Assembly: GCA_964606485.1 (NCBI GenBank)
Contig: CAZSGP010000001.1
Span: 97,085-161,084, forward strand
Origin: an uncultured Planctomycetia bacterium
GTDB lineage: Bacteria > Omnitrophota > Gorgyraeia > 2-02-FULL-51-18
DNA: 64,000 nucleotides
Reading direction: 5' to 3'
In this document: positions 31,301 to 45,262 of the stretch, one piece after another
Position numbering within the stretch: position 1 is the first letter of the stretch
Layout: the number at the start of each line of letters is the position of its first letter
Position numbers and translations under genes: made by a program
The notes under the pieces: model-generated
Told to the model about the DNA's origin: nothing
The model's input: only the letters and a program-made list of their open reading frames with translations
Databases searched by the model: none

Positions 31301-34300
31301 TCAATAACGGCGGCGCTCTCGTAAATAATTCAGGCTCTGCTACCGGTTACAGTGGTGCCATCGTCATGGGTTCGGCCACGCGCATCACCAATTCGGGTGC
31401 CGGACTTTTGACGCTGAGTGGTGCTACTACAGGCGCTTTTAATCTTTCGGTAGGTGGCGCCGGCGATACCACGATCTCCGCAAATATTACGACGGCTGGA
31501 ATCACACTCACCAAAGATGGGGCGGGGACACTCACTTTAAGCGCTGCGAACGGCTTCACGGGACTCACTCGCGTTGACGCGGGCACTTTAAAATATGGCA
31601 TTGCCAACGCGTTAAACACGGGTGCTGTAACTATTGCTGGCGGTACATTGGACATCAGCGGATTTTCTGATACCAATCTTGGCGCGCTGACATTGATTAG
31701 CGGCTCGGTTATCAATAGCGGCGGCGCGGCAACCATTACTTCAACAGCAACATACACACTTGAAAGCGGTACGGTTAGTGCTGTTCTAGCCGGTGTCGGA
31801 ATTGCCTTAAATAAAAATACGGCCGGTACGGTGACGATTAATGCGAGCCAAACCTATACCGGAACAACAACCATTAATGCCGGTATTTTAACTTATGGAG
31901 CGAGCGGACTTTTAGCGGCAACTGCGATAAACGTATCGGGCGGTACCTACGACATCAATTCTATTTCCGACACCGTCGGCGCCGTAACGCTTACGAGCGG
32001 ATATATTACGGGCACCACCGGTGTTCTAACCGGCACGTCGTATGCCGTGCAGAGCGGCACGATATCCGCCATTCTCGGCGGTGCAGTGGCTTTAACCAAA
32101 ACGACTTCCGGCACAGTGATTTTGTCCGGCCTAAATACGTATACCGGTGTTACGACGATTACTGCCGGAACTTTAAGCGTTTCTGTTTTAGCGAACGGCG
32201 GCGCATCTAGCGGCATTGGTGCCGCTGCAGCCCTTTCCACTAATCTTGTGTTTAATGGCGGCACTTTGCAATACACGGGTACTGGGCACAGCACCGACAG
32301 ACTTTTTACCATCAACACAACAATTACGGCGATTATTGACGCGTCAGGTTCCGGAACCGCTTCGTTCACTGGCGCATCGATTACGTATCAAACTAACAAC
32401 ACGATCCATGGACTCACTCTTACCGGAAGAGGCAATGGCAGTTTTACTCCCGTGATCGCCAATATGGGAACAGGTGTTACCTCCGTTACTAAAAATGGAA
32501 CAGGCACTTGGACTCTGAATGGCACAAGCACTTACACGGGAACCACGACGGTGAATGCGGGCACTTTTGCCTATGGAGCCAGTAATATACTGGCCGTAAC
32601 GGCCTTAACCGTTTCCGGAGGAACCTTTAGCATGGCCGGCTTCTCGGATACGATCGGAGCGGTCAATCTTACGAGTGGGAGCATTACCAGCACCACCGGT
32701 GTTTTGACAGGAACTTCGTATGCCGTGCAAAGAGGGACGATCAGCGCCATTCTTGCCGGTGCGGTCACGATGACGAAAACGACTGCGGGTACCGTGGTGT
32801 TATCCGGCGTAAATACATACTCGGGCGTCACCACCATCACGGCCGGTGTATTGAGTGTCGGCACAATTGGCAATGGTGGTGTCTCAGGCAATCTCGGAGC
32901 AGCTGCCGTGGCGGTGGGCAATATCGTGCTAAACAGCACCGGCGTTTTGCAGTATACCGGATCGACTGCTTCAACAAACCGCGGCTTTACATTAACGGCG
33001 GCTGCTACTTCTTTTATTGATATCACGCAAAGCGGAACCATTCTGACGGTTTCGGGAGGCAGTGCCGCCAATACCGGAGGGCTCACAAAGATTGGCGCCG
33101 GCACCTTAACATTTTCTGCGGCCGTTTCATACACCGGAACCACAACCATCACTGCCGGTACGCTCGCTTACGGCGCCGCCAATATTTTAAGCACCGGTGC
33201 TGTCACCGTTGATGGCGCTACTGCTGTTCTAGCCATGGGCAACAATCAATCGGATACCGTTGGCACTGTTACGGTTTCGAGCGGCGGCAGCATCACCGGA
33301 AGCGGAACTTCCGCACTCACGACCACTGGAACCTTTGAAATGCAAAGCGGCTCAGTGAGCGCAATCCTTGCCGGAGCCGTCGCTTTAAATAAAACGACTT
33401 CCGGAACCGTGACGCTTTCCGGTGTCAACACTTACACGGGTGTTACCACGATTAGCGCTGGAACATTGAGTGTCGGAACGATTGGAAACGGTGGCGTCGC
33501 TGGAAATCTCGGAGCTGCCGCCGTGGCAGTAGGAAATATCGTCATCGGCGGCACGGGAGTGTTGCAGTACACCGGCGGCACAGCTTCCACGAACCGCGGC
33601 TTCACCATCACCGCCGGTCAAACGGGCACGATTGATGTGAGCAATGGCGCAGCAACACTCACCATTTCAGGCGGAACCGCAACGAACTCGGGCGCCCTTA
33701 CAAAAATTGGAGCTGGCACTCTAACCTTTACGACGACTGCCGCGACTTACACTGGCACCACCACGATCAATGCGGGAACTTTGTCCTACGGCATGGCCAA
33801 TATGCTGAGCAGTGGAGCAGTCACCGTTGACGGAGCGACTGCGGTTCTGGCTCTGGGCCTTAATCAATCCGACACGGTCGGAACGGTTACAGTGGCGAAT
33901 GGTGGAAGCATCACCGGAACTGGAACCTCCTCACTGACTTCCACAGGCACCTTTGAAATGCAAAGCGGTTCGGTGAGTGCGATTTTGGCGGGGGCGACAA
34001 TTGTAATGAATAAAACCACCGCCGGGACGGTGACGCTTTCAGGAGTAAATACATTTACTGGTCTGACTACAATCAGCGCCGGAACATTAACCTATGGAGT
34101 CAATGATGCGTTGTCGAACGGCGGCGTGACCGTCTCTGGCGGAACGCTTAGTCTTTTAACTTTTAATGAAACGAATATTGGCGCGGTGACGCTGACAAGT
34201 GGATCCATCACGAGCACAACCGGTGTTTTGACGGGTACGTCTTACGCCGTGCAAAGTGGTTCGATCAGCGCAATTCTTGCCGGAGCCGTCGCTTTAAATA

Positions 34301-37300
34301 AAACGACTTCCGGAACCGTGACGCTTTCCGGTGTCAACACTTACACGGGTGTTACCACGATTAGCGCTGGAACATTGAGTGTCGGAACGATTGGAAACGG
34401 TGGCGTCGCTGGAAATCTCGGAGCTGCCGCCGTGGCAGTAGGAAATATCGTCATCGGCGGCACGGGAGTGTTGCAGTACACCGGCGGCACAGCTTCCACG
34501 AACCGCGGCTTCACCATCACCGCCGGTCAAACGGGCACGATTGATGTGAGCAATGGCGCAGCAACACTCACCATTTCAGGCGGAACCGCAACGAACTCGG
34601 GCGCCCTTACAAAAATTGGAGCTGGCACTCTAACCTTTACGACGACTGCCGCGACTTACACTGGCACCACCACGATCAATGCGGGAACTTTGTCCTACGG
34701 CATGGCCAATATGCTGAGCAGTGGAGCAGTCACCGTTGACGGAGCGACTGCGGTTCTGGCTCTGGGCCTTAATCAATCCGACACGGTCGGAACGGTTACA
34801 GTGGCGAATGGTGGAAGCATCACCGGAACTGGAACCTCCTCACTGACTTCCACAGGCACCTTTGAAATGCAAAGCGGTTCAGTCACGGCTATTTTGGCGG
34901 GGGCGGTGGCGCTGAACAAAACAACATCAGGCACAGTGACATTGACCGGAGTTAACACTTACTCTGGCATTACCACGATTACATCTGGCACGCTCAGCGT
35001 CGCGGCTGATTCCGGTCTCGGCACTGCTCCCGGTTCTCCCACAGCCGGACATCTCGCCTTTAATGGCGGCGCACTTCAAACGACAGCCGGTTTCACGCTT
35101 AATTCTAATCGTGGTGTGGCTCTTACGGGAGACGGCACTTTCTTGGTGGATCCTGCAACCACTCTTGTTTACAACGGAATTATTACGGGCACAGGAGCTC
35201 TCAGTAAAACAGGCACAGGCACACTGACACTGGGCGGCAGTGTGACGAGCGGCGGATTGACGGTGACTGCGGGAACGTTTGGTGCTTCCGGAGTTTCGTT
35301 GCTTGATGTGAACGGCAACGTCTTGATTAACGGCGGTACACTCACACCGCCCGCACTTAACTTTACAGTTTCAGGGGATTGGACAGTAAGCTCAGGCACT
35401 TTTAACGCGGGTTCAGGACGCGTGGTATTTGATGGATCAGGAACTCAACAAGTCAGTGTCGGCGGGCAAAGTTTTTATGAATTCACACACACGGGAAGCG
35501 GAACGGTTCAGCTGGTGACGAGTGCCTTCAGCGCAAACGCGTTTACGAATTCCAACGGAACCTTTAGTTTGAATGGTCAAAATTTCACGGTCTCAAGCTC
35601 TTCTTTTACGAACACCGCCAATATGGAACTTCAAGGCAATGAAACCGTTTCGATTAATTCTCCCTACGTCGTGGCCGGAACCTGGACTTACCGCGGCCGC
35701 AATATCGCTGAGACCTTGACGATTAAAGATTTCGGTGCGATTGATTATTACAATTTAACGATCAATGACACGAACGGCACCAAAGCAACGTTTAGCATTG
35801 CCGATTCTTTGGTGGTGAGCGGCACACTGACGCTTTCGGGCGGAAATCTCACGCAAGCGTCCGGATCAGGGAACACCATTACGGCGGCTATTTATGCTCA
35901 ATCGGGCGGCAGTACGTTTACGGGCGGTAACGCCGATATGACGATCAATGGAGATCTGGGTCTTTCGGGCGCTGATACTATTTTTACAACCTCCAGCGCG
36001 ACAACTCAGGTGATTACGCTGACGGTGAATTCGAGCGGCTCTGGCGAGCTCTTAATGGCTTCAGGAGCCACTCTTCGCGTGACGGGTTCCGGAACACCGG
36101 TGACCGGAACCGGAACGATCGATACGACCACCAACGGGAATAACACTTTTGAGTTTACAGGTGCGGCAGATATTTCAACAGCGAGCCCCTTTTACAATCT
36201 TTCTCTGATCGCCGTTCCATTTAGTCAGGGCGGAATCCTCACTTTAAATTATGATGAAAGCGCCATCACATCCGTTGTGATCGATACGACCAACGGCTTC
36301 GGATACTTTGGTACGGGTACAAGCCCCGGCATCATTATCAAAGTTCGTCTCGCCGATAACAGCCGCGTGGGCGCTTTAACACTCGCTTCAGGTGAAAATA
36401 ATTTAACCACCGCGGTGATGGACGGCCAATACGCCTATTTCGGAACCTATACCACTTCCGCAAAAGTGGTGAAAGTGGATCTGTCCACTTTCACGCGCGT
36501 GAGTGCTGTTTCGTTGAGTGCGGGTCAAGACTATCTCTATGCTTCCGTGGTCGACACCACCAATCATTTTGCTTATTTCGGAACTTACACCGCACCCGGC
36601 AAGATCATTAAGATCAACACCGCCTCCGGCAGTTTTGCTTATGTCGGAGAGTTGGACATGGGCTCGGTCGGAGCCAACGAAAGTTATTTTTATAACAATG
36701 CCGCGGTGCTCGACACCGAAAACAACTTTGCGTACTTTGGCACCTATACCGAGAATGGCGCAAGCGGCGCTTACGTTGTTAAAATCAACACCGCTCCGGC
36801 CGGTTTTGCTTATGTCGGCAATATTGCGCTTGCGAATGGAGAAGACAATATTGCCTCTGCGGTGATCGATCTTTCGGGGGCCACCAATTACGCTTATTTT
36901 GGAACCGACACCGCTCCTGGACAAATCGTAAAAGTGAATTTGAATACCTTTACGCGAGTCGGCGCCGCAACGGGCATTGTGGCCGGCGAAGACAATTTCA
37001 CATCCGCTGTGATCGACACCGCCAATCAATTTGCTTATTTTGGAACCGACACCGCTCCCGGAAAAATCGTGAAAATTGATCTCGCTACTTTTGCGAAGAC
37101 GTCTACCATCACTCTAAATTCGGGCGAAGATTATCTTTATTCTGCGGCGATTGACACCTCAAACAATTTCGCTTATTTCGGCAATGCCAATAACCCCGGC
37201 TACATCATCAAGGTGAATACCTCGACCGGCTCGTTTGCACGCGTTTCATCTTTGCAGACCAATGTCGCCGAAAACTGGATCAATTCCGCGGTCATCGATA

Positions 37301-38724
37301 CCTCCGCCGGATTCGCTTATTTTGGAACCTACAACGCACCGGGCGTCATTGTCAAAGTGAGACTTTCGGATAATTCCCGCGTGGGCGTGCTCACTCTGAG
37401 CGCCGGGGAAGATTATTTGAGCTCTGCGGTGATCGACACGACGAGTGCCACGCACTACGCCTATTTTGGAACCAATTCTAATCCGGGCACCATTGTTAAA
37501 ATCAATCTTTCCAGTTTTACGAGAGTGGGAGCGGCGACGGGGCTTGCCGCGACGGATGATTATTTTACCTCTGCTGTGATTTACACCAACACCTACGCGT
37601 ATTTTGGAACCAACACCGCGAGCGGTGCTTACATTGTTAAGATTGATCTGTCGAGCTTTTCCAAATCCGGAAGCAGTCTTCAGCTCAATAACGGAGAAGA
37701 TTATTTAACGTCGGCTGTTATCGACGGAACCGGTACTTTCGCGTATTTCGGAACCAACACTTCAACGGGCCATATTGTAAAGGTGAGTCTAGCTGGGTTA
37801 ACGCGGGTGGGTGAGATTTCGGGTTTGGCAACCGACGATCAGTTTTTCACCTCGGCCGTGATTGATAACACCAACAACTTTGCGTATTTTGGAACCAATG
37901 ATGCTAACGGTGCGACCGGAGCCTACATTGTTAAAATTAACACCAATACGTTCCAGAAAGTCGGCAGCAGCTTAGGCTTGAATGACGGCGAAGACTACCT
38001 GACCTCTGCGGTGATTGATGTGACCAATGGCTACGCTTATTTTGGAACGTATACGGATCCTGGAATTGTGGTGAAGATCAGGCTTTCAGATTTTACCCGC
38101 AACGCAGCCGTCACGTTGACCGCGGGCAACTCAAACTTGGCGGCCGCGGTGATTGACGTCACGAATAGCGCCGCTTACTTTGGAACCGACACGACGATTC
38201 CGGCCCGCGTGATCAAGATAAATTTAGGCGGCCAGATCCGGATTATCAGTCTACTCACGGTGACAAACAACCTTACAATCGGCGATCTTAGCACGCCGAC
38301 GCTCGTTGCCGCGCTGGCCAACATCTTAGTGGGTGGTAATTGGACGAATTACGGCACGTTTAGTGCGGGAACTTATACGGTAACGCTGAACGGCGGCGAT
38401 GGAGTCAACCAACATATTTATGGAAGCACAACTTTCTACAATTTGACCAAGGATATGTCCAGTGGAACGCAGGATGGCACGCTGACTTTTGAGTCTGGCG
38501 CCGGCAACCAAACCAATATTACGAATACGCTACTGCTCAAGGGCAACGCCAAGTATAACTTAAAACTTCGTTCCTCGAGCGCCGCGCAGTTTTATTTAAA
38601 CCCCACCAACACTGCGACCTTGAGCGACTTGAATATTCAAAACTCCAACAACGCTGGCGCATCTCTTACGGCCAATAGCTCGGTCAACAGCGGCGGCAAT
38701 TCCGGATGGACGGTTAATCCCTAG
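22333..38724 (+). CDS. Giant TpsA exoprotein (filamentous-hemagglutinin-like, 5463 aa)
   Basis: N-terminal TPS secretion domain (NGDVSFTNPDANTLNININSDQSIIQYNSFNIAAGETVNF...LNRVVAGGDSQIFGNLFANGNLILLNQNGINFGAAAQVNVGSLMASTQN). Then ~3500 aa of Gly/Thr-rich PATR-like beta-strand repeats (G.LTLSG.NTYTG.TT(I/V).AGTL). Then 18 C-terminal ~45-aa repeats (SAVID...FAYFGT.T.PG.IVKI.L..F.RVG). Confidence 0.9.
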   Translation: MINLWRNLQCHKRRSARIAAMGMMLIFLGSPCGLVWALPQGQDVINGDVSFTNPDANTLNININSDQSIIQYNSFNIAAGETVNFFMPSTDAFSLNRVVAGGDSQIFGNLFANGNLILLNQNGINFGAAAQVNVGSLMASTQNLSNVDFLNRQYIFAGTDNNPNSFISNEGNITTSNGGFVVLAADAIRNTGTIEAPLGTVILAGGKNVTVNLTNDGLVNVAIDEAVAQNVLDSDGNPITDQLKNSGTLRGATVKLDAKSAANIYQSAINQDGIIRADQVSVGQDGIVEITASGLVKLGGSIAADQTSVQSDTNITVDTALITSGNTILAAKNNIDVNANVTTDSGSLSFLADSDLNGQGAFTQAIGTTIRTTTFGDITIQGSGESVLGNIVSAGNITLQDGGASAHFTQLSGSVLQSGGSFTIDNGVSYSASNAVLSISKDWLNYGSFDAGLSLVKLVGSLDASVMANNVFNDLEIIEPSKNVEFEAGKTQEITGTLTVSGQNGKMVNIQSTNNEIPAILSILGNYRIEYAQVKNITSVNIHGPPTAGLHLQNLGGNTGWDFSSGVVFIGSVSSDWSDALNWDGGFVPGAFDLVRFNASSGSASLYIDTAIAGLFLESDYTGTLSLGSSTLTISGDFSVRGGNFQAGTSTVVFNDASQISHILGNNTFYNFMSVTPSKVIQFEAGKTQTILGNWKLEGAFAQHVRLVSTESGNQWLVDPRGSYDISYSWVEDSHSLRPGDIIMTESSNRGNSIGWDPVATWTGASSANWNDAGNWSGLGGVTPGMGDDLLFPDGAANLSNTNDFAADTLFNSLTISGSGYTLAGNSIIIGAGAAGITDSSAAGSNTISLPIKFLATRTITVTDSATTLTISGIISDAGGLTKEGAGKLILSGANTYSGTTKVNYGVLNIQNANALGTIAGGTEVVEGAGLQIQGNIAVGAEALLLRGNGFSSAGALRNISGDNSYGGAITLVAGGAEISSDAGTLTLNGGISGAFPLIVDGAGNVTFASTPIATAAGTLTKNGAGTLTFNFTNTFTGLTTLNAGTLLYGTHNALSTGAVTVLGGTFDVATFSDSIGTLTLNGGVVTGSTGVLSSTATYDVRSGTISAVLGGAVGLTKTTSGTVVLSGANIYTGTTTVSAGILSVQNNLALGDIDGATTVTSGATLQIDGNGLSIAEAISTLNGVGVVSGTSGVGALRNLANNNTWTGAIALGAASTIYCDAGTLTISTTGITGNTFGLTVDGPGNVTLSTAPLNTTTGTLTKNGAGTLTMQSFNTYTGVTTINAGTLVLSGNGASTLSTFTINSGAALTLDNSGTTGVDRMGDTLAVTMNGGDLNIIGHGSTYTNMILGALTLSSGENTITITPGAAGTGVTFASFSRSAGATALFRGTSFGSAPGAGVSSLFFVTESGLLTGGEGSANSTTISIIAGAFGDNSLSGTGTDMVTYNEGNSNGLRLLNGAGFSGEYLSNSFTTTNANVKLTAATNAATGTINSLIIDSGGSIADAGTAETITFTTGNILSLSGNSGISGANTTLAFGTVQASTRVVGDLAISAAITGTGGLATGGAGTLTFSTAQAYTGLTSINDTTFLYVIDNAISTGALTINNGILNLSTFSDSVAAVILTSGSISGSGTLTSTASFTVSSGTVTATLNGGVALTKTTVGTVTLSGNNSYTGLTTISAGVLKLGATGSGANTPLGTTGAGTSVTSGAALDLNGFTLATAEGLTINGTGIALGGALMNSSATPVSYSGNIILGAASRINANSGTLTLNGGISGAFGLTVGGAGNSTISGVISTVTSLTKDGTGTLTLSGDNTMAGTTTVSVGTLKLGANGGGTNTPLGTTAAGTSVTSGAVLDLNGFSLGTTEGLTINGTGINGGGALINSAVGTPTYQGAIALGSASTITSNNGAITLSGAFSGAFALTLDGTSSGTISGVVGTGAGTITKVGTGTWTLSNAGSTYTGLTTISAGTLKLGANGGATNTPLGTTGGATVVNSGAVLDLNGFALGTAEGLTLNGMGIANGGALITNAASTFLGAITLASDTRIANSGAGTALTLNGGVTTAGFLLTVGGAGNTTFSTAAVAGAGGIIKEGAGTLTMNVSSSYTGATLVKAGTFTYGASGLLAVTALTVTGGTFDINTISDAIGTVTLLGGSITGTTGVLTSTGYTVENGTIDAILAGAVTLVKNTTGTVTMTKANTYSGASTINAGTLTLSGSGTAVSSAFTINSGATLTLDNSGTNVASRLGDAVALTMNGGNFYFIGNGAAAASETAGALTLSSGYNIVTVTVGAGGSTIMTFASASRTAGATVLFRGNSLGNAPAANVANIRFTNATGLGLTGANTTATDKPIVPYAFGEPSGGGTGTSFVTHNVDLVGNAANTNGIRPLDLATEYVADSFAAGSANKNVIIQNATNAAAQTINSLLLYNASVSYASDVTITVTSGAVARVLAGDIEATSASATRILAFAGVEAKIFAIDSFYIAPNITGTAGLSTGGTGTLTFPGAGTFGVVKAYTGTTTINSGTLTYGLSDALSSGAVTVVGGTYNLAGFSDSIGALTMNGGTVTTGAGTLTLGGTVTTLASIRESTISGNLGLGANRIFDVADGLVVNDLVVSAVISGGFTVTKSTGTGTLVFSGDNTYTGVTTISSGIFKLGASGGGVNTPLGTTAAGTVISNGAAFDLNGFTLGTAEGLTINGTGVSSSGALFNSSGTAVTYSGLLVIGATAPTITANNGNINISNVGTITGAAVVLTLSGSGNGSVTSIIGTPTSGLTKTGAGTWTLSGDSTYATATTISAGVIKLGAAGGGTNTPLGTTAAGTVVSSGAALDLNGFTLGTAEGLTISGAGIVSGGSVGALINSSGSSVTYSGQLLLGASSTITANNGDINLSAVGTITGAGFALTLNGSGNGSLASVVGTVGGTVVKNGQGTWTLSGSSTYTGATTVNAGTLKLGATGGGTNTPLGTTGTGTTVNAGAVLDLNGFTLGTTEGLTLNGSGINNGGALVNNSGSATGYSGAIVMGSATRITNSGAGLLTLSGATTGAFNLSVGGAGDTTISANITTAGITLTKDGAGTLTLSAANGFTGLTRVDAGTLKYGIANALNTGAVTIAGGTLDISGFSDTNLGALTLISGSVINSGGAATITSTATYTLESGTVSAVLAGVGIALNKNTAGTVTINASQTYTGTTTINAGILTYGASGLLAATAINVSGGTYDINSISDTVGAVTLTSGYITGTTGVLTGTSYAVQSGTISAILGGAVALTKTTSGTVILSGLNTYTGVTTITAGTLSVSVLANGGASSGIGAAAALSTNLVFNGGTLQYTGTGHSTDRLFTINTTITAIIDASGSGTASFTGASITYQTNNTIHGLTLTGRGNGSFTPVIANMGTGVTSVTKNGTGTWTLNGTSTYTGTTTVNAGTFAYGASNILAVTALTVSGGTFSMAGFSDTIGAVNLTSGSITSTTGVLTGTSYAVQRGTISAILAGAVTMTKTTAGTVVLSGVNTYSGVTTITAGVLSVGTIGNGGVSGNLGAAAVAVGNIVLNSTGVLQYTGSTASTNRGFTLTAAATSFIDITQSGTILTVSGGSAANTGGLTKIGAGTLTFSAAVSYTGTTTITAGTLAYGAANILSTGAVTVDGATAVLAMGNNQSDTVGTVTVSSGGSITGSGTSALTTTGTFEMQSGSVSAILAGAVALNKTTSGTVTLSGVNTYTGVTTISAGTLSVGTIGNGGVAGNLGAAAVAVGNIVIGGTGVLQYTGGTASTNRGFTITAGQTGTIDVSNGAATLTISGGTATNSGALTKIGAGTLTFTTTAATYTGTTTINAGTLSYGMANMLSSGAVTVDGATAVLALGLNQSDTVGTVTVANGGSITGTGTSSLTSTGTFEMQSGSVSAILAGATIVMNKTTAGTVTLSGVNTFTGLTTISAGTLTYGVNDALSNGGVTVSGGTLSLLTFNETNIGAVTLTSGSITSTTGVLTGTSYAVQSGSISAILAGAVALNKTTSGTVTLSGVNTYTGVTTISAGTLSVGTIGNGGVAGNLGAAAVAVGNIVIGGTGVLQYTGGTASTNRGFTITAGQTGTIDVSNGAATLTISGGTATNSGALTKIGAGTLTFTTTAATYTGTTTINAGTLSYGMANMLSSGAVTVDGATAVLALGLNQSDTVGTVTVANGGSITGTGTSSLTSTGTFEMQSGSVTAILAGAVALNKTTSGTVTLTGVNTYSGITTITSGTLSVAADSGLGTAPGSPTAGHLAFNGGALQTTAGFTLNSNRGVALTGDGTFLVDPATTLVYNGIITGTGALSKTGTGTLTLGGSVTSGGLTVTAGTFGASGVSLLDVNGNVLINGGTLTPPALNFTVSGDWTVSSGTFNAGSGRVVFDGSGTQQVSVGGQSFYEFTHTGSGTVQLVTSAFSANAFTNSNGTFSLNGQNFTVSSSSFTNTANMELQGNETVSINSPYVVAGTWTYRGRNIAETLTIKDFGAIDYYNLTINDTNGTKATFSIADSLVVSGTLTLSGGNLTQASGSGNTITAAIYAQSGGSTFTGGNADMTINGDLGLSGADTIFTTSSATTQVITLTVNSSGSGELLMASGATLRVTGSGTPVTGTGTIDTTTNGNNTFEFTGAADISTASPFYNLSLIAVPFSQGGILTLNYDESAITSVVIDTTNGFGYFGTGTSPGIIIKVRLADNSRVGALTLASGENNLTTAVMDGQYAYFGTYTTSAKVVKVDLSTFTRVSAVSLSAGQDYLYASVVDTTNHFAYFGTYTAPGKIIKINTASGSFAYVGELDMGSVGANESYFYNNAAVLDTENNFAYFGTYTENGASGAYVVKINTAPAGFAYVGNIALANGEDNIASAVIDLSGATNYAYFGTDTAPGQIVKVNLNTFTRVGAATGIVAGEDNFTSAVIDTANQFAYFGTDTAPGKIVKIDLATFAKTSTITLNSGEDYLYSAAIDTSNNFAYFGNANNPGYIIKVNTSTGSFARVSSLQTNVAENWINSAVIDTSAGFAYFGTYNAPGVIVKVRLSDNSRVGVLTLSAGEDYLSSAVIDTTSATHYAYFGTNSNPGTIVKINLSSFTRVGAATGLAATDDYFTSAVIYTNTYAYFGTNTASGAYIVKIDLSSFSKSGSSLQLNNGEDYLTSAVIDGTGTFAYFGTNTSTGHIVKVSLAGLTRVGEISGLATDDQFFTSAVIDNTNNFAYFGTNDANGATGAYIVKINTNTFQKVGSSLGLNDGEDYLTSAVIDVTNGYAYFGTYTDPGIVVKIRLSDFTRNAAVTLTAGNSNLAAAVIDVTNSAAYFGTDTTIPARVIKINLGGQIRIISLLTVTNNLTIGDLSTPTLVAALANILVGGNWTNYGTFSAGTYTVTLNGGDGVNQHIYGSTTFYNLTKDMSSGTQDGTLTFESGAGNQTNITNTLLLKGNAKYNLKLRSSSAAQFYLNPTNTATLSDLNIQNSNNAGASLTANSSVNSGGNSGWTVNP
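22450..23250 (+). other. TPS (haemagglutination-activity) domain of TpsA
   Basis: Motifs listed in the parent CDS. Approximate boundaries. Confidence 0.75.
33368..33971 (+). repeat. Copy 1 of a perfect ~604-bp direct repeat within tpsA (period 909 bp)
   Basis: Minus-strand artefact ORFs 33385-33621 and 34294-34530 translate identically. The nucleotide strings cttgccggagccgtcgctttaaataaaacg ... gaaatgcaaagcggttc are identical at 33368-33971 and 34277-34880. Confidence 0.8.
34277..34880 (+). repeat. Copy 2 of the perfect ~604-bp direct repeat within tpsA
   Basis: See copy 1. Flanks diverge (…SVSAILAGATIVMNK… vs …SVTAILAGAVALNK…). Confidence 0.8.
36200..38235 (+). repeat. 18 tandem ~45-aa repeats at the TpsA C-terminus (in-frame coding repeat)
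   Basis: Consensus L..GED(Y/N)L.SAVID..N.FAYFGT.T.PG.IVK(I/V).L..F.RVG, counted from the translation. May form a beta-propeller or beta-solenoid. Confidence 0.7.
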
Positions 38725-38732: not shown

Positions 38733-39734
38733 TTACTTGGAATACTGCGAATCAACCTCGTCATAAACTGATTTAGAGATATTTCGGATGGCAGTGGACA
38801 GTCGGCCGTACTCGCTACCCTTGGTCATTACGGCCAGAATGTAGGGGTTATTTGGGTAATAAACAATCGCGATTTCATGCAGTTGTTTTTCATCGATATC
38901 CGGAAAGAAACGCTCACCAAATTTATGGGCCACTACGATATTTGTTGGGAGTCCTGCAACGATACCACTTTTATAATTCGACTCCGTTAGATAGGTCAGG
39001 GCCCTTTGCGATAGCTCTTCATTGATGTAAGAGGCGTTATAAAGGGTTCTTAAAAAACCTGCGACAATCCTAAGAGACACAAACTGGCTATTGGCCGTGT
39101 AACGGTCCGCATCTATTCCAAAATCGTCAAAAGTTTTGCGTATCGTGCCGCGCGGGAGGCTGTTCAAAAGGATTTTATTCGCGGTGTTGTCGGATTCGGC
39201 GATCATAAAATGTATCAATTCATCCACAGAATAGCTCTGTCCGATCTTAGCCGAGCTCTCCTGGGGTACTCCGGCGCCTATTCCGCCGAGATCCACCGCC
39301 TCATACTTGATTTTCTTGTTTAGAATATCCGGGTTTTGTTCAGCCATTTTGTAATAGCATAGCATTACCGGAACCTTGAGAATGCTCGCCGGACAGAACT
39401 CCTCCTTTTCATTTATTCCGATGGTGATTCCGTCGCCCAGGCTTCGGAAATAAACAGCCGCTTCCCGGATATTGCCGCTGGCTTTCTCGCGTTCAATGGT
39501 CTCTTCAATTTGCGACTTAAAAGGCCTTAGTTCTTTGAATTTCATAATCCCTAAAAGGGGATTAGTGAGGCGTTTGGTTTCGGCGGCAAGAGAATTTTTG
39601 TCCGTAAGGCAGAAGCCGACCCATAAAAAAAATAGTAAAATGCCGCTTGTAAGGGCACAGAAAAACCACGTGGGTTTAAATTTTTTTTCGCGGTTCATTT
39701 GGTAACGCAGTATATCACACCGCGCCCTAAACAT
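38733..39734 (-). CDS. Membrane-anchored class A beta-lactamase-related serine hydrolase
   Basis: SxxK (S117-I-L-K120), SDN (S181-D-N) and K-S/F-G (K255-S-G / HKFGE) motifs at class-A-like spacing. N-terminal TM helix. Convergent with tpsA, with only 8 bp between the stops. Confidence 0.65.
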   Translation of the reverse strand: MFRARCDILRYQMNREKKFKPTWFFCALTSGILLFFLWVGFCLTDKNSLAAETKRLTNPLLGIMKFKELRPFKSQIEETIEREKASGNIREAAVYFRSLGDGITIGINEKEEFCPASILKVPVMLCYYKMAEQNPDILNKKIKYEAVDLGGIGAGVPQESSAKIGQSYSVDELIHFMIAESDNTANKILLNSLPRGTIRKTFDDFGIDADRYTANSQFVSLRIVAGFLRTLYNASYINEELSQRALTYLTESNYKSGIVAGLPTNIVVAHKFGERFFPDIDEKQLHEIAIVYYPNNPYILAVMTKGSEYGRLSTAIRNISKSVYDEVDSQYSK

Positions 39735-39803: not shown

Positions 39804-40748
39804 ATGACTACAGATGCCATACACCTCACCCGTACCGGAGTTCAGATCGCCGATCGCGCGCGCGTGATTAAGCGCCTTAAAGAAAAATTCGATCGCTCTC
39901 ATTGTCTCTTGCTCAAGAATTTTTTAGACCCGTCACTTTTAAAGCAGATCGCTCTAGAAATTAAAACAGGCGTCTTTTATGAGCGAGTTCACAAGGGGAT
40001 ATCGCTTGAGTCTTGCTTGCGTCCGAGTGCAGTGACTCATATTTTAGATTTTGCAATCAATGACTCAGCTTTATTTCAAGTTATCCGCGAAATATCGGGC
40101 TGCGCCCCGGTCGGATGCTTTAACGGCCGCGTCTATCGAATGCGCCCCGGCAAGGGACATTATGATTCATGGCACAGCGATATTAACGAGAAACAACAGC
40201 GCATGGTGGGGATGAGCATTAATTTAAGCCCAAAGCCCTACCAAGGCGGTGTGCTTCAGATCCGAGACGATCGAAGCAAAAAAATTTTAAAAGAACTTCA
40301 TAACACGGGTTTTGGAGACGCCATTTTATTCCGGCTAAAACCCTATCTTGAGCATCAGGTGACGAATGTCGACGGGCCTTTCGATAAAACCGCTTACGCA
40401 GGCTGGTTTCAACAGTTTCCGAAAAATAAGCTGATCTCTAAAAAAGGAAATGCTCGTCCCGTGACGCGCGGCGACAAAAGCTTGCGCATCAATAGAACCT
40501 TCAGGGTATCTAAAAAAGTGATGACTCGTCAGCAAGGAACCGCGTTTTTAATCTGCCAGCCATCGCGCGATGTTTGCTATGGCCTGGATGGCGTGGGCCG
40601 GTCCATCTGGGATCACCTGCAGCAATCCAGCACGGTATCGTCTCTTACCGCAAAATTGTCTTCACAGTACAACGCCCCGCCGGAAACTCTTAAAAAAGAT
40701 GCCGAGCGCATGATCCGAGTGCTGTTCGCTCAAGGTTTTATAGAGTGA
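39804..40748 (+). CDS. 2OG-Fe(II) oxygenase-like domain fused to a C-terminal PqqD-like RiPP recognition element
   Basis: HxD...H facial-triad candidates (W-H-S-D ... L-E-H-Q). The C-terminal 70 aa, CYGLDGVGRSIWDHLQQSSTVSSLTAKLSSQYNAPPETLKKDAERMIRVLFAQGFIE, match the PqqD pattern. Confidence 0.6.
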   Translation: MTTDAIHLTRTGVQIADRARVIKRLKEKFDRSHCLLLKNFLDPSLLKQIALEIKTGVFYERVHKGISLESCLRPSAVTHILDFAINDSALFQVIREISGCAPVGCFNGRVYRMRPGKGHYDSWHSDINEKQQRMVGMSINLSPKPYQGGVLQIRDDRSKKILKELHNTGFGDAILFRLKPYLEHQVTNVDGPFDKTAYAGWFQQFPKNKLISKKGNARPVTRGDKSLRINRTFRVSKKVMTRQQGTAFLICQPSRDVCYGLDGVGRSIWDHLQQSSTVSSLTAKLSSQYNAPPETLKKDAERMIRVLFAQGFIE

Positions 40749-41413
40749 ATCTCCTCGTTGAAATAGCGGATATTTGCGCTTGGTACGCGCACCGCTGTGC
40801 AAACTCCGTCGTTCTATGCCTCAAAGAAATTTTTCGTTCGATCGAGGATTATCTCCAGGACAGGAAACTTGGGATTCGGACCTGTTATGTTCATTCGGAT
40901 TTGGTGGAACGATCACTTTATCAAGATGAGATTCTCTACAAACCGACCAGTTTTCACCGCATCCGGAAAATGATGGAGCATTTAAAACTGGGTTCTCAAG
41001 ATGTATTTGTGGATATTGGCTGCGGCAAGGGGCGAGTGGTTTGTATGGCGGCGCGAGAACCCATCAAGAAAGTAGTTGGGCTTGAGCTAAAAAAAGTGTT
41101 GGCCGATACAGCGGAACAAAATTTGAGTACTTTAAAGGAAAAAAAATCTGAAGGCCTGATTCTTCGGGGAGATGTTCTGGCGCAGGATCTGTCCGAAGGA
41201 ACTGTGTTCTTTATGTACGATCCCTTTTTCTTTAAAACATTTAGCCAGGTTATTGAAAATATTCATCAAAGCGTGATCCGCTTTCCTCGTTGCGTGCGAA
41301 TTGTTTATTTTGACCAGCGCTATGGCGACTACTTGGATTCTCTGGACTGGCTAAAATCCGAAGGGGAAATCGGACACACCCGGATTTTTGTGTGGACCTA
41401 TAAACCGTCTTGA
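40745..41413 (+). CDS. Small class I SAM-dependent methyltransferase
   Basis: Motif I VFVDIGCGKGRVV. Acidic post-I residue in VVGLELKK. Translationally coupled to the oxygenase-RRE gene (4-nt overlap). Confidence 0.6.
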   Translation: MNLLVEIADICAWYAHRCANSVVLCLKEIFRSIEDYLQDRKLGIRTCYVHSDLVERSLYQDEILYKPTSFHRIRKMMEHLKLGSQDVFVDIGCGKGRVVCMAAREPIKKVVGLELKKVLADTAEQNLSTLKEKKSEGLILRGDVLAQDLSEGTVFFMYDPFFFKTFSQVIENIHQSVIRFPRCVRIVYFDQRYGDYLDSLDWLKSEGEIGHTRIFVWTYKPS

Positions 41414-43293
41414 GCGCCATCGCTGGAATCTACCGTTTTGACGGCTCTAAGTTAGAAAACGCTGTTCTATCGCGGATGATCGCGCCGCTTGTTCCACACG
41501 GTCCGGATTACACAGGGGTTTGGGCGCAAGATTCCATGGGCTTAGGACAATGCTCGTTATGGAATACTCCCGAATCACCTTTCGAAAAATATCCTCTTTT
41601 ATCAGCCGATGGACAACTAGTCTTAGTGGCGGATGCTCGTCTCGATAACCGCGCGGAGCTCTTGCGCGATTTGTCTTTGAGTCACACGGGAACGATTGGC
41701 GACGGCGAGCTGATTCTTCTGGCTTATCAAAAATGGGGAGAGAATTGTCCCGAAAAACTTCTCGGAGACTTCGCTTTCGCAATTTGGGACGCAAGGCGCC
41801 GTGCGCTGTTTTGCGCCCGAGATCACTTTGGAGTAAAGCCGTTTTACTATTTTGAGTCGCGTGGGTTTTTTGCTTTTTCGTCTGAGATCAAAGCCATTTT
41901 AACGCTTCCCGAAATCCCCCGGAAATTAAACGACCGGATGATGGCTCATCATTTGTTGTGGCTTGAAGAAAACCAAGAGATTACTTTTTATGAAGGAATT
42001 TATAAGCTTAGTCCGGCAACGACGCTCACCGTTTATCCCGGAAAAATCCAGAAGAGAAAATATTGGTCGCTTGACGCGCGCCGCAAAACGCGTCTTCAGT
42101 CTGATCAGGACTATTCCGAGGCGTTCAGGGAGATTTTTATTGAGTCGGTGCGGTGTAGGCTCAGAAGTTACGGAAAAGCGGGCTCGCTTTTAAGCGGAGG
42201 GCTCGACTCTTCGGCGGTGACGTCCGTGGCTCGGTTGCTGCTCGAGAAAGAAGGGAAGGCGCTCGATACTTTCTCCGCTATTTTTGAGAATGCGCCGTCG
42301 TCAGATGAGAGAGTTTATATTCGGCAACTCACCACTCTTCCTAGTGTGCGTTCGCATGAAATTCCGTTAGACGGAAGCGCGCCTTTTTTTGAAATCAAAG
42401 AAAATTTTAAGCATTTAGACGAAGTTCATAACTATGATCTCACCATGGGTTGGGGAGGAATTTACCCTGAGGCTCAAAAGTTGGGTGTTCGCGTTCTCTT
42501 GGACGGTGATGGGGGAGATGAAGTGGTGTTTCGCGGCTATCTGCGTCTTGCGGAACTCTTAAAGGAATTTCGATGGGTTGAGTATTGGAAAACATTGAAC
42601 GGTTTATCTAAAAACATCGGCCGCTCGCGGCGCGATCTTTTCATCAGTCAGTCTGTTCGACCGCTTGTGGCGCCGAGCTTTCTTTACGCATGGCGACATT
42701 TGCGTTGGGGACACCGCGCACTTTGGTTTGAGCGTGATTTATTGAATCCGGTCTTTGCAAAGAAAGTTGGCTTGGAAGAAATGGAGTCCCAACAAATCCG
42801 CGAAGAGACAAGTCCTTCACGCTCGGTTAGCGAGGATCATTTTAAGGCCCTCACATCGGGCTCGGTGTCCTACGCTTTTGGGATTATGGCGCCTGCGGCT
42901 GCGGCGTTTGGCATTGAACACCGCTACCCATTTCACGACGTGAGACTGGCGGAATTTTGCTTGTCACTGCCCTCAGACCAAAAGCTCTACCGAGGCTGGA
43001 CGAGAGTCGTGATGCGCCGCGCTCTCGAGGGAATACTGCCGGACGCGCTTCGGTGGCGCGGCGGAAAAACCTACGCGACCGATGATTTTGTCTACCGACT
43101 CCATCGCTTCGAAAAGGAAGCTTTAGACCGGATTTTTTTGAAGAATCCTTCGCGGATTGAGCCTTACTTTAATTTGGGGATGATCAGAAAAAAATACGAA
43201 TCGTTTCTCGCCAAGCCCGAATATAAAACCGCTGTAGTGCTCTGGCAGGCGGCTATGCTATCATTATGGCTTGAAGATACCCAATTTTCTTGA
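41410..43293 (+). CDS. Asparagine-synthetase-B-like amidotransferase homolog lacking the N-terminal catalytic Cys (lasso-peptide cyclase / C-protein candidate)
   Basis: TTG start is forced by an in-frame stop at 41401-41403. The N-terminus is M-S-A-I-A-G-IY, not the M-C-G-I-x-G of AsnB. PP-loop ATP pyrophosphatase motif LLSGGLDSSAV is present. 627 aa. Confidence 0.8.
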   Translation: MSAIAGIYRFDGSKLENAVLSRMIAPLVPHGPDYTGVWAQDSMGLGQCSLWNTPESPFEKYPLLSADGQLVLVADARLDNRAELLRDLSLSHTGTIGDGELILLAYQKWGENCPEKLLGDFAFAIWDARRRALFCARDHFGVKPFYYFESRGFFAFSSEIKAILTLPEIPRKLNDRMMAHHLLWLEENQEITFYEGIYKLSPATTLTVYPGKIQKRKYWSLDARRKTRLQSDQDYSEAFREIFIESVRCRLRSYGKAGSLLSGGLDSSAVTSVARLLLEKEGKALDTFSAIFENAPSSDERVYIRQLTTLPSVRSHEIPLDGSAPFFEIKENFKHLDEVHNYDLTMGWGGIYPEAQKLGVRVLLDGDGGDEVVFRGYLRLAELLKEFRWVEYWKTLNGLSKNIGRSRRDLFISQSVRPLVAPSFLYAWRHLRWGHRALWFERDLLNPVFAKKVGLEEMESQQIREETSPSRSVSEDHFKALTSGSVSYAFGIMAPAAAAFGIEHRYPFHDVRLAEFCLSLPSDQKLYRGWTRVVMRRALEGILPDALRWRGGKTYATDDFVYRLHRFEKEALDRIFLKNPSRIEPYFNLGMIRKKYESFLAKPEYKTAVVLWQAAMLSLWLEDTQFS

Positions 43294-43301
43294 GACGAAA
43301 T

Positions 43302-43307
43302 AGGAGG
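43302..43307 (+). promoter_or_regulatory. Perfect Shine-Dalgarno AGGAGG, 7 nt upstream of the small-ORF ATG
   Basis: Read directly: ...gaaatAGGAGGaaatcaaATG. Confidence 0.6.
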
Positions 43308-43314
43308 AAATCAA

Positions 43315-43476
43315 ATGTCGGAAAGTCAGTCTAAAAAAAATCAGTCCCACTCAAAAAAACAGTCAAAAAAGAGTTATCAATCCCCAAAAGTTACCGTTTA
43401 CGGCAGCGTCTCAAAACTCACCGGAGCCAAGGCCGTTGGCAAAAAGCGTGACGGTTCGGGAACCAAAAAAACCTGA
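43315..43476 (+). CDS. 53-aa Lys-rich small ORF. Candidate RiPP (lasso-like) precursor peptide.
   Basis: MSESQSKKNQSHSKKQSKKSYQSPKVTVYGSVSKLTGAKAVGKKRDGSGTKKT. Below the 60-aa ORF-track cutoff. Strong RBS. Sits immediately after the AsnB-like gene and before the HPr-kinase-like gene. A possible leader/core split places Thr at -2 (…KLTG|AKAVGKKRD9|GSGTKKT). Confidence 0.45.
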   Translation: MSESQSKKNQSHSKKQSKKSYQSPKVTVYGSVSKLTGAKAVGKKRDGSGTKKT

Positions 43477-43502
43477 GATCGTTTAACTACACAGCTTATG
43501 GG

Positions 43503-44315
43503 TTGTCTGTAAGCTCTAGTATTTCTCTTCCCGAACTCACCTCCTCCAAAGCAGTTGCCCGTCCGCATATTGTGATTCGCGAGGGACGGGTGCGGTTTCC
43601 GCATTTTTATTGGAAAAATGAATGTTCGATTCATGTGTCCGGCGGTCGGAAAATTGTGGTAGACCCTGATCCGTCCGCTGACCCGCGAGCCGTTCGTTTA
43701 AGTATCTTAGGGCCGGCATTTTCAAAGATTCTCGAGCAAAGAAATGACCTGGTTCTTCATGCGAGTGCCGTCGGGTTTAAAGGGGGCGCCATTGTGTTTG
43801 TGGGCGCTTCAGGTTCGGGCAAATCCTCGCTTGCTGCGGCCTTTTGTTCTAAAGGACATTCTTTCATTACAGATAATTTGCTCGTCATTCGCTTTATCAA
43901 GAATCGAGCGGTTGTTTTCCCGGGTTTTCCTCAAATTAAGTTATTTCCGGACTCTGCCAAAGCGTTGAAATTTAATCCGGATCATCTTCCGGCAATTGAA
44001 GCCGGCGCCCGCAAGCGGTGGGTGAGTCAAGAGGCACAGTTTTCCGTTAAACCTGCCTTGCTCAAACGGATTTATTTTTTATCGAAAGGCAAAACAGTTG
44101 CTGTTCAAAATGCATTGAGCCGGGAAAAAATCATTCAACTGATCAGTCACTCTATTGGTGTAGAAAGCAAATCAGCACAAGAGACCTTATCTCAAAACTT
44201 CAAAAGCTGCATGCGGCTAGCTAGAGATATTCCGATGCGCTTGGTTACTCGTAGCCAAGATTTAAAATCGCTACCTCAGCTCGTCACTTTGATTCAAAGA
44301 GACTTAGTGAAATGA
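43503..44315 (+). CDS. HPr kinase/phosphorylase C-terminal-domain-like P-loop kinase (peptide kinase candidate)
   Basis: Walker A VFVGASGSGKSSLAAAF. Size and architecture match stand-alone HprK-like kinases found in RiPP clusters. TTG start as in the ORF track; the true start is uncertain. Confidence 0.6.
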   Translation: MSVSSSISLPELTSSKAVARPHIVIREGRVRFPHFYWKNECSIHVSGGRKIVVDPDPSADPRAVRLSILGPAFSKILEQRNDLVLHASAVGFKGGAIVFVGASGSGKSSLAAAFCSKGHSFITDNLLVIRFIKNRAVVFPGFPQIKLFPDSAKALKFNPDHLPAIEAGARKRWVSQEAQFSVKPALLKRIYFLSKGKTVAVQNALSREKIIQLISHSIGVESKSAQETLSQNFKSCMRLARDIPMRLVTRSQDLKSLPQLVTLIQRDLVK

Positions 44316-45262
44316 CGAAAGAATTAATGGACGAAAAGAAAGCGCTGGTTTTTGAGGCGCTTCTTTGGAAAAGCGAACTCAATAAAGTTTTACAGGTTCT
44401 GCAAAATGAAAAAGTGGACTGCATTTTAATGAAGGGCATGCCGCTTTCGTATCAAATTTATTCTCAGCCCATTGATCGGCCGTTTTCGGATATTGATGTT
44501 TTAATTCAAAAAAAAGATTTCGAAGTTGTCCGCGCGGCCATGCTCAATCTGGGGTATTATTTGGACAACGCGGTTGAGGGGGACTACGTGTCGCATCAAC
44601 GCACGTTCACCCAAATAAGCCCCGCCGGTTTTGAATTTCTTTTCGACTTTCACTGGAAAATCAGCAACTCTGCGCTATTTTCTGAAGTCTTGTTGTGGGA
44701 TGAGCTCTGGCCGAAAGTCGTGCCGATTGAGACGCTCGGTAAAAACGCCAAGGCTTTGTGTTTGGAGCATGCGTTGATCCTAGCTTGCATTCACCGGGCG
44801 GCCCATCATCCCGGCGAAGACCGGCCCATTTGGATCGAAGACATTCACCGTTTGTTGAGTCAGATGGACAGTCACCAGCTTCATTTTTTTTGCGAGACCG
44901 TTTCTCGAAAGAAAATTGCCGCTATTTGCTGGGACGGTGTTCAAAAGTCATTAGACCGTTATAAAACTAAAATTCCAGATAAGATCACAGAGAGCCTCAA
45001 GCTTCATGTCAGCTACGAAAAATCCGCGACCGCGTATCTCAAGTCAAACGCAAAGCTTTTAAGAAATGTCAGCAGTAATTTAAAAACCCTGCCCACTTTT
45101 AGACAGAAGACAGGGTACTTGAGAGAGCTTTTTTTCCCCTCCAAAGCTTATATGATGGCAAAGTACCACTCACAGCAGATCTGGTTACTGCCTTTCCTCT
45201 ATATAAGACGGGCCGCTAAGGGTGTTTTTAAAGCTTTTACGTTGCGTAATGTTAAGAATTGA
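44312..45262 (+). CDS. Uncharacterised nucleotidyltransferase-family protein (RiPP-cluster-associated type)
   Basis: MKGMPLSYQIY...RPFSDIDVLI fits a pol-beta-like nucleotidyltransferase GS...D.D signature. Overlaps the kinase gene by 4 nt. Confidence 0.45.
   Translation: MTKELMDEKKALVFEALLWKSELNKVLQVLQNEKVDCILMKGMPLSYQIYSQPIDRPFSDIDVLIQKKDFEVVRAAMLNLGYYLDNAVEGDYVSHQRTFTQISPAGFEFLFDFHWKISNSALFSEVLLWDELWPKVVPIETLGKNAKALCLEHALILACIHRAAHHPGEDRPIWIEDIHRLLSQMDSHQLHFFCETVSRKKIAAICWDGVQKSLDRYKTKIPDKITESLKLHVSYEKSATAYLKSNAKLLRNVSSNLKTLPTFRQKTGYLRELFFPSKAYMMAKYHSQQIWLLPFLYIRRAAKGVFKAFTLRNVKN

Follow-up and report, generated by a model that had tools for sequence, protein, structure and literature searches.

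This locus raises the question of what is made by a compact block of six genes inside an envelope polysaccharide region, and of what to make of its leader-processing genes, which lie 19 kb upstream and one of which is fused to a secretion gene. The stretch of DNA analyzed (the window, 64 kb; positions 97,085 to 161,084 of contig CAZSGP010000001.1, GenBank assembly GCA_964606485.1) belongs to the metagenome-assembled genome (MAG) of an uncultured bacterium. The block had been read from the sequence alone as a lasso peptide gene cluster with oxygenase, methyltransferase, kinase and nucleotidyltransferase tailoring. This reading was upheld by a cyclase that scored above a curated hidden Markov model cutoff and by precursor homologs beside related cyclases, and the cluster is likely to be intact and to direct the synthesis of a tailored lasso peptide that is small and strongly cationic (predicted product). 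A tailored lasso cluster with a kinase (K) and a nucleotidyltransferase (N) is of a kind already known.

The cyclase (C), a homolog of asparagine synthetase B (AsnB), was scored against models of the competing families. It gave 667.9 bits on the NCBIfam model NF033535, "lasso peptide isopeptide bond-forming cyclase" (cutoff 525), 282.6 bits on the generic AsnB model, and 197 bits on TIGR03108, the PEP-CTERM/exopolysaccharide (EPS) amidotransferase model (cutoff 817); it thus sides with the lasso cyclases and not with glutamine-hydrolysing AsnB or EPS amidotransferases. Its Pfam domains are Asn_synthase (168 bits) and GATase_7 (100 bits). The N-terminus reads MSAIAGI, with Ser in place of the nucleophile Cys2, and the SGGLDSS PP-loop is kept, both as first read from the sequence; SGGLDS is invariant across the cyclase alignment. 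More than 4500 homologs were obtained at E ≤ 1e-40, many of them bearing the lasso-cyclase name in NCBI entries, and the top relative in the genome collection was just 39% identical.

The small open reading frame (ORF) at 43315-43476 encodes 53 amino acids, with the AGGAGG ribosome-binding site pointed out in the sequence-only reading located 7 nt 5' of its ATG, and was assigned as the precursor (A). A motif search of all fetched loci revealed the family motif Y-x-x-P-x-[LV]-x-x-x-G-x-x-x-x-[LI]-T-x in about 60 small ORFs adjoining related cyclases, each followed by a short core with Asp or Glu at position 8-9; the same leader motif therefore stands beside related cyclases and kinases in many other loci, as a genuine precursor had been expected to show. 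The window precursor reads YQSPKV…LTG before the predicted cleavage site and AKAVGKKRD after it, and thus has the YxxPxL-type leader, Thr at -2 and, as D9, an acidic residue within positions 7-9. The NCBIfam precursor models scored just under their cutoffs (25.2 vs 33 bits; NF033521 lasso_leader_L3, 18.5 vs 19 bits). Cleavage was placed after Thr-Gly because of the Thr at -2. The precursor ends in YQSPKVTVYGSVSKLTG followed by the predicted core AKAVGKKRDGSGTKKT, and the corresponding cores are AKASGSHVDSSRKKS at locus L102, AKASGADSDGVSNKKT at L019 and MAKRRRVSDGGTRRT at L018. D9-G10 and the C-terminal [KR][KR][ST] are kept in all four precursors of this subclade (window, L018, L019 and L102), whose C-termini are T, T, T and S. 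The core contains five Lys in 16 residues and no Pro. In the wider family with K, precursors end in many different residues (A, L, P, S, V, G and others), so a universal C-terminal Ser, as in paeninodins, is unlikely to be what the family kinase targets. Some related clusters carry several tandem precursors: five at L049 (11924-12990) and two each at L025, L058 and L082.

The remaining lasso functions were found upstream. The leader-binding gene B1 and the leader-peptidase gene B2 had been placed at 19787-20530; B1 is indeed a separate gene (19787-20086), but B2 does not end there and runs on to 22215, fused to TpsB, the outer-membrane transporter of a two-partner secretion (TPS) pair. B1 matches PqqD (PF05402) at 50.2 bits (cutoff 23.4), falls just below the cutoff of NF033536 lasso_PqqD_Bac (71.4 vs 80), and is 31-55% identical to B1 genes adjoining B2 and C in related loci. 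The B2 domain scored 86.4 bits on NF033537 lasso_biosyn_B2 (cutoff 33) and 81.7 bits on PF13471; none of the positions with 80% or higher conservation among 145 stand-alone B2 proteins is changed, the invariant C82, H117 and W119 included. Both genes are single copies in the window, 19 kb upstream of the C-A-K-N side, and the leader peptidase occurs there solely as the N-terminal domain of the TpsB fusion. With them, every part that a lasso peptide requires is present and looks intact.

All coordinates are collected in the table. The six co-directional ORFs of the block were confirmed at the boundaries first proposed; they are tightly packed, neighbors overlapping by 4 nt at three junctions and the small ORF being set off by 21 and 26 nt on its two sides, and none contains a frameshift, all being intact.

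Features of the putative lasso peptide and two-partner secretion genes (positions counted from the first nucleotide of the window)
Feature	Coordinates	Strand	Basis or remark
B1: stand-alone PqqD-like RiPP recognition element (RRE)	19787..20086	+	PqqD 50.2 bits
B2 domain: lasso leader peptidase, transglutaminase-like Cys protease	20083..20520	+	Residues 1-146 of 710-aa fusion
Internal signal-peptide-like segment: TRAVSLVLIFLGMQLLSSVAYA, then VD	20521..20586	+	No stop after B2
TpsB: ShlB/FhaC-type outer-membrane transporter, POTRA + beta-barrel	20587..22215	+	C-terminal part of fusion
TpsA: 5463-aa secreted exoprotein, nested between B2 and the other lasso genes	22333..38724	+	TPS domain
Class-A beta-lactamase-family protein	38733..39734	-	PF13354 134 bits; N-terminal hydrophobic segment
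Fe(II)/2-oxoglutarate (2OG) oxygenase (prolyl-hydroxylase-like fold) + second RRE	39804..40748	+	Pfam
S-adenosylmethionine (SAM) methyltransferase, class I, DOT1/aKMT-like	40745..41413	+	PF08123
C: lasso macrolactam (isopeptide) cyclase	41410..43293	+	NF033535 above cutoff, PP-loop
A leader, 37 aa: MSESQSKKNQSHSKKQSKKSYQSPKVTVYGSVSKLTG	43315..43425	+	Family leader motif
A predicted core AKAVGKKRDGSGTKKT + stop; predicted A1-D9 isopeptide ring	43426..43476	+	
K: HprK-like P-loop protein, lasso precursor kinase family	43503..44315	+	Motif at BsfK spacing
N: NTP_transf_5 nucleotidyltransferase-fold, PsmN/BsfN/LppN-like	44312..45262	+	PF14907

Each of the four tailoring genes named in the sequence-only reading proved to have the identity given there (oxygenase-RRE fusion, methyltransferase, HprK-like kinase and NTP_transf_5 protein). 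The first comprises 2OG-FeII_Oxy_3 (aa 111-203, 36.8 bits, cutoff 27) and PqqD (aa 255-313, 45.5 bits, cutoff 23.4), and the window consequently holds two RREs, this one and B1. The HxD…H triad (H124, D126 and H184) is invariant in 51 homologs, and an AlphaFold2 model (pLDDT 91.4) gave Tpa1, OGFOD1, PHD2 and P4H as its top Foldseek matches. The fusion is found in about eight database clusters and lies directly upstream of the cyclase at L018, L033 and L102; at L033, one of the metagenomic loci described below, it stands between B2 and C. At L103 (7061-8642; Vicinamibacterales, GCA_036381155.1), a separate PqqD gene is followed by two tandem stand-alone oxygenase paralogs, which adjoin a divergent lasso cluster, an NTP_transf_5 gene, an ABC exporter, Wzy_C and glycosyltransferases. 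The locus seems to show the oxygenase-RRE arrangement in unfused form.

The methyltransferase has its best Pfam match in PF08123 DOT1, at 39.3 bits, and matches NF041081, an archaeal protein-lysine N-methyltransferase model, at 34.3 bits, far under the cutoff; its best solved relatives are aKMT (5fa8, E 2.6e-10; 5jwj, E 4e-9) and DOT1L (E 3e-5). Its AlphaFold2 model, built without an alignment, reached a pLDDT of 36.6. Searches of solved structures with the oxygenase, K and N returned marginal matches only. Lys N-methylation of the core would be attractive given its Lys content, and is weakly suggested, since the likeness is limited to the Rossmann core.

K scored 25.8 bits on PF07475 (cutoff 33.3). 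Its motif, H86-G101-G104-G106-K107-S108-D124-N125, has a spacing identical to that of the validated BsfK motif, H148-G163-G166-G168-K169-S170-D186-D187 (PMC10368454), but the complete His/Lys/Asp/Asp set is lacking: H86, K107, S108 and D124 are present, and residue 125 is the single position at which the catalytic motifs of the locus are not intact. Asn125 is confined to the window, L102 and L018, the three oxygenase-RRE-bearing relatives, and L019, which has no oxygenase, keeps Asp-Asp; kinase and oxygenase functions may therefore co-vary. Because of this Asn, phosphorylation by K is plausible but uncertain, and a C-terminal site, though suggested by the conserved terminal residue, is not secure. 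N scored 111 bits on PF14907 NTP_transf_5 (cutoff 31.2) and keeps the nucleotidyltransferase signature KG…DxD, with K41, G42, D60 and D62 conserved in 12 homologs. A homolog of N, PsmN, transfers a hexose onto the phospho-Ser of pseudomycoidin (PMC9266682), and lasso clusters with both K and N are known from experiment (PMC9266682, PMC6993621, PMC10368454).

The ORF at 20083-22215 encodes 710 amino acids comprising B2, a hydrophobic segment and TpsB in a single frame with zero in-frame stops. Stand-alone B2 proteins end (median 148) where the segment TRAVSLVLIFLGMQLLSSVAYA starts; this segment is the second hydrophobic peak of the protein and aligns with the N-terminal signal peptides of stand-alone TpsB homologs. 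It lies at residues 147-168, behind the 146-aa B2 with no stop between, and is thus not N-terminal as a TpsB signal peptide would ordinarily be; signal peptidase would be predicted to cleave after AYA. The TpsB part matches PF03865 ShlB at 99.3 bits (cutoff 22.7) and POTRA_2 PF08479 at 41.6 bits, and is 41-45% identical to the stand-alone TpsBs P0003-P0007. The start was placed at the TTG at 20083 on the basis of alignment with stand-alone B2 from residue 1 and of the TTGA overlap between the B1 stop and the B2 start; the public gene call of the fusion (P0001, 664 aa) begins at residue 47 (20221 vs 20083) and so truncates B2. Among the best 150 B2 relatives in 1.84 billion representatives, one was fused to TpsB, namely the window's own protein, and two others exceeded the stand-alone length (388 and 582 aa). 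A further fusion, P0002, is 44% identical and has PF13471, POTRA_2 and ShlB, with PqqD upstream and a TpsA homolog downstream in a different genomic neighborhood; its 90% cluster includes OGW91906.1 from an Omnitrophica MAG.

The next gene, of 16.4 kb, lies between B2 and C and directly follows TpsB. Its product was taken as the cognate TpsA from this position together with the TPS secretion domain (PF05860, aa 38-276, 86.8 bits, cutoff 33.5) and at least 23 PATR repeats. A direct repeat within the gene (33341-33640 and 34250-34549) is 98% identical at 909-nt spacing, with more diverged copies nearby. The separation of B1 and B2 from the other lasso genes had been called atypical; it is real but was under-read, in that B2 is fused to TpsB, TpsA lies between, and the layout is conserved elsewhere. 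TpsA orthologs lie downstream of B2::TpsB at L001/L104 and directly upstream of C-A-K at L019/L020, where a TpsA C-terminus 48% identical to that of the window is followed after 10 nt by a 52%-identical cyclase, a precursor and K. The TpsAs of L104 and L019 are 59.7% identical over 1400 aa, which ties the two half-loci together. As judged by sequence comparison, the order B1–B2::TpsB–TpsA–C–A–K thus appears to recur in at least three lineages (the window and at least two others, 42-60% identity) and to be neither a one-off nor an assembly artefact, contigs L001, L002, L021, L104 and L105 of the P0002/Omnitrophica lineage all ending inside TpsA and the halves being joined through TpsA homology only. 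That related contigs break off within TpsA is probably due to a recent tandem duplication of PATR-repeat blocks. The L019 cyclase (5008-6687) lacks about 65 N-terminal residues of the degenerate GATase-like domain. A TpsA::cyclase fusion at L019 was considered and rejected, a stop lying between the two and the cyclase merely being shorter at its N-terminus; a 58-aa ORF upstream of B1 at L001 was likewise rejected as a second precursor, being a hydrophobic membrane peptide. The beta-lactamase-family gene has no homolog at any related locus and is probably outside the system.

The usual architecture of the family was derived from a metagenome scan with the cyclase alignment, which gave 80 loci onto which the window proteins were mapped. 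In 31 of 54 informative loci no more than 250 nt separate the end of B2 from C, and B1 stands just upstream of B2 in 24 of those. A K homolog follows C within 2.5 kb in 32 of 43 informative loci (N is present in 17 of 43), which gives B1-B2-C-A-K-N as the usual order. Neither TpsA nor TpsB was found in any of the 80 loci. The same lasso parts are carried by cyanobacterial and archaeal MAGs, and the family is widespread and mostly uncultured. Related cyclases (34-37% identity) were found in Methanobacteriaceae and Nitrososphaerales MAGs (L009, L010, L012 and L013), showing that the family reaches into archaea; K, B1, B2 and lasso-type precursors accompany the cyclase at the two Methanobacteriaceae loci L010 and L012, with N at L010 only, whereas L009 and L013 have cyclase and K only, apart from a precursor at L013.

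The whole window is an envelope polysaccharide (O-antigen/EPS) locus with the lasso/TPS block inside, and holds Wzy_C, glycosyltransferases, a Wza-like exporter, Wzz/BY-kinase and ABC-2 Wzm/Wzt. Paralogous sugar genes flank the block (15255-19759 and 49917-60891), with C-methyltransferases, GDP-mannose-dehydratase-like genes and DegT aminotransferases present twice each. An ATP-grasp gene was found at 57799-59136 and a NusG paralog, which may be an operon-specific antiterminator, at 52034-52549. A second giant ORF (3067-11445, 2792 aa) lies upstream of the polysaccharide genes and gave degenerate TPR-like matches only. Promoter and terminator scans of 38500-45500 gave sites no more numerous than in shuffled sequence, and an Rfam scan of the window gave no matches. 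Among the relatives, L102 adjoins BY-kinase, and L103 adjoins Wzy_C and glycosyltransferases. In Bacilli, according to a 2026 paper, paeninodin-like clusters and those for linear polyphosphorylated peptides (LPP) are embedded in capsule loci and co-induced with an EPS gene, their role being unknown (PMC13381572).

By analogy with characterized lasso systems, the following pathway of tailoring, cleavage and cyclization can be proposed. An RRE, be it stand-alone B1 or the one fused to the oxygenase, would bind the 53-aa precursor at its YQSP leader motif. The linear precursor would then be hydroxylated by the prolyl-hydroxylase-like 2OG oxygenase and methylated, possibly on Lys, by the DOT1/aKMT-like methyltransferase; if K is active, it would phosphorylate the linear precursor, most likely at the conserved C-terminal Thr16, and the NTP_transf_5 protein would elaborate the phosphate. 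B2 would cleave after Thr-Gly, and the cyclase would link Ala1 to Asp9. In this lineage a TPS pair lies exactly between B2 and C, and B2 has lost its stop, so that it is read in frame into the TpsB signal peptide. The fusion may be a polyprotein that the internal signal peptide leads to Sec with B2 left in the cytoplasm; signal peptidase would free TpsB for the outer membrane, and B2 would remain tethered to the inner membrane.

Several points weigh against an intact cluster working in this way. The product is predicted here from genes alone, and the host is an uncultured organism represented by a MAG. We know of no precedent for a cytoplasmic enzyme N-terminal to the Sec signal peptide of an outer-membrane barrel; translation of TpsB might instead begin inside the ORF (in P0002 the signal peptide opens with Met), and the fusion, if made at full length, might fold wrongly or lack activity. 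A McjD-type ABC exporter was absent from the 64-kb window in domain scans, and the minus-strand gene between TpsA and the tailoring and C-A-K-N genes means that the halves cannot share one transcript here. In K, the Asn at residue 125 (43875-43877) occupies the position of the last catalytic Asp, which is Asp in 42 of 46 relatives, and D187A lowers the activity of BsfK (PMC10368454). The precursor ends in Thr, not in the strict C-terminal Ser, and LppK refuses Thr (PMC13381572), whereas BsfK takes it. A ring of eight residues, with cleavage one residue later, could be formed in place of the A1-D9 ring. The methyltransferase resembles Lys methyltransferases over the Rossmann core only, and a related methyltransferase is present at L036, whose core has zero Lys.

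Three other explanations were weighed against these data. That the AsnB-like enzyme, the HprK-like protein, the PqqDs and the nucleotidyltransferase form an exopolysaccharide/PEP-CTERM amidotransferase and "HprK-related kinase" system is suggested by neighboring genes that match PEP-CTERM/EPS export models (TIGR03027, 190.8 bits; EpsL weakly) and by weak matches of K to TIGR04352 and TIGR04355. This reading was rejected, and we regard it as extremely improbable, on the scores of the cyclase on the amidotransferase and lasso models (197 vs cutoff 817, and 668 vs cutoff 525) and of K on TIGR04352 (33 vs 200); a B2 peptidase is moreover present, together with a precursor that has the lasso leader motif, Thr at -2 and Asp9. 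The locus might instead be a decaying remnant, in which a TPS insertion broke the operon, fused B2 is non-functional, K is dead and no mature lasso peptide is formed. The splitting of the operon by 19 kb and a minus-strand gene, the Asp-to-Asn change in K, the missing exporter in the window and the N-terminal shortening of the L019 cyclase would all fit. However, every ORF is intact without frameshifts, the conserved residues of B2, the cyclase PP-loop, the oxygenase HxD…H and the nucleotidyltransferase DxD are all kept, and four lineages with 39-53% identity share the core features of the precursor; Asn125, too, is kept in three lineages with K proteins only 34-39% identical to that of the window, which argues for continued selection. 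Decay is accordingly held to be improbable.

More is to be said on either side of a functional coupling of the lasso pathway to the TPS pair, according to which the peptide would not be a free antimicrobial and would work with the TpsA/TpsB machinery or the polysaccharide envelope, for example by maturing at the membrane beside the secretion apparatus and ending up on the cell surface, or by glycan linkage through K/N phosphate chemistry. The B2-TpsB frame is kept in two lineages only 44% identical, the synteny B1-B2::TpsB-TpsA-C-A-K is seen in at least three, TpsA and C are 10 nt apart at L019, and no dedicated ABC exporter is encoded in the window. The cluster moreover lies within an O-antigen/EPS locus, the relatives L102 and L103 also adjoin EPS genes, and the Bacilli paeninodin and LPP clusters co-localize with capsule loci and are co-induced with an EPS gene (PMC13381572). 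On the other hand, the other 80 related lasso loci have no TPS genes, and the nearest homologs of TpsB and of TpsA are found without lasso genes too, none lying near the closest stand-alone TpsBs; one insertion in an ancestor, with loss of the B2 stop, would be enough to fix the linkage without any coupling of function. TpsB channels also carry unfolded TpsA by way of the TPS domain, which the precursor lacks. We therefore consider the coupling rather unlikely, if worth stating. Equally tentative is the wider suggestion of an envelope- or contact-associated role, in place of that of a free antibiotic, in which a cationic lasso peptide decorated with phosphate or glycan would be matured at the inner membrane in this clade and deployed along with the TPS adhesin and the surrounding polysaccharide. 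An intact cluster for a tailored lasso peptide is thus the reading retained here.

For the known lasso clusters with kinase and nucleotidyltransferase tailoring, published work offers no biological role and notes only that they tend to lie in capsule loci. The link to envelope polysaccharide is now seen also in a distant uncultured diderm lineage, the nearest fusion homolog coming from an Omnitrophica MAG, and the fusion and synteny give the first hint in the searchable literature of a tie between lasso maturation and an outer-membrane secretion apparatus. Neither a B2::TpsB fusion with a nested TPS pair, nor an oxygenase with a private fused RRE, nor a DOT1-like methyltransferase was found for such clusters in that literature. 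If the polyprotein model is true, the signal peptide of an outer-membrane protein would serve as the anchor of a cytoplasmic enzyme, and one polyprotein, B2–signal peptide–TpsB, would give rise to an enzyme at the inner membrane as well as a channel in the outer membrane. The locus also offers testable enzymology in an oxygenase with its own RRE, a DOT1/aKMT-like methyltransferase beside a Lys-rich core, and an Asp-to-Asn kinase that co-occurs with the oxygenase. Genome mining that requires B2 beside C, or that trusts the truncated start call, would mis-score such clusters.

Among known systems, the paeninodin (Paenibacillus dendritiformis) and pseudomycoidin (Bacillus pseudomycoides) clusters share with the window a kinase and a nucleotidyltransferase; there, (poly)phosphorylation of the linear precursor at its C-terminal hydroxyl residue is followed by an elaboration, in which PsmN adds hexose (PMC9266682, PMC6993621). 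Clusters of paeninodin type also often sit in polysaccharide loci (PMC13381572). They are, however, from Bacillota, with WxxP leaders, a strict C-terminal Ser and an ABC exporter, and without oxygenase or methyltransferase; the window leader is YQSP and not the WxxP recognized by a Trp-preferring RRE (PMC13381572). The first assignment of the window to the paeninodin type consequently holds for gene content (kinase plus nucleotidyltransferase) and fails for the leader motif, the C-terminal residue, the exporter and the last kinase Asp. The Bacillota LPP systems (PMC13381572) resemble the window in the RRE, HprK-like kinase, NTP-transferase, YxxP leader and capsule/polysaccharide setting; LPP clusters have no cyclase and use a SipW-like signal peptidase for the leader, whereas the window has a cyclase and the B2 Cys protease. 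The LPP leader peptidase is membrane-associated, and any membrane association of B2 in the window would come from the fused signal peptide.

The canucin A hydroxylase CanE of Streptomyces canus is likewise an Fe/2OG enzyme that acts on a linear lasso precursor and is strongly stimulated by the RRE CanB1 (PMC9266682), and the oxygenase-RRE fusion of the window fits this published need. CanE is a separate protein that borrows the pathway B1, whereas the window oxygenase has its own fused RRE while stand-alone B1 remains, and its fold is prolyl-hydroxylase-like. The TPS pair corresponds to FhaB/FhaC- and ShlA/ShlB-type systems in its POTRA and ShlB barrel, a TpsA in which a TPS domain at the N-terminus precedes a long repetitive passenger, and the tpsB-tpsA order; it differs from them in the internal TpsB signal peptide behind a 146-aa cytoplasmic-type cysteine protease, and in the lasso genes on both sides. 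Also among the closest known systems is the Bsf cluster of Bradymonas sediminis FA350 (bsfA, B1, B2, C, D, K, N; PMC10368454), which has in common with the window a Gram-negative host, split B1/B2, an AsnB-type cyclase, an HprK-like kinase with H…GxxGxGKS…D at identical spacing, and an NTP-transferase; its RRE, too, helps both B2 and a tailoring enzyme. In Bsf, position -2 is Ile, Ser3 is phosphorylated and an ABC exporter is encoded, whereas in the window -2 is Thr, core position 3 is Ala in place of a Ser/Thr phosphosite, the conserved C-terminal residue is Thr, the last Asp is replaced by Asn and an exporter is lacking; the oxygenase-RRE, the methyltransferase and the TPS insertion come in addition.

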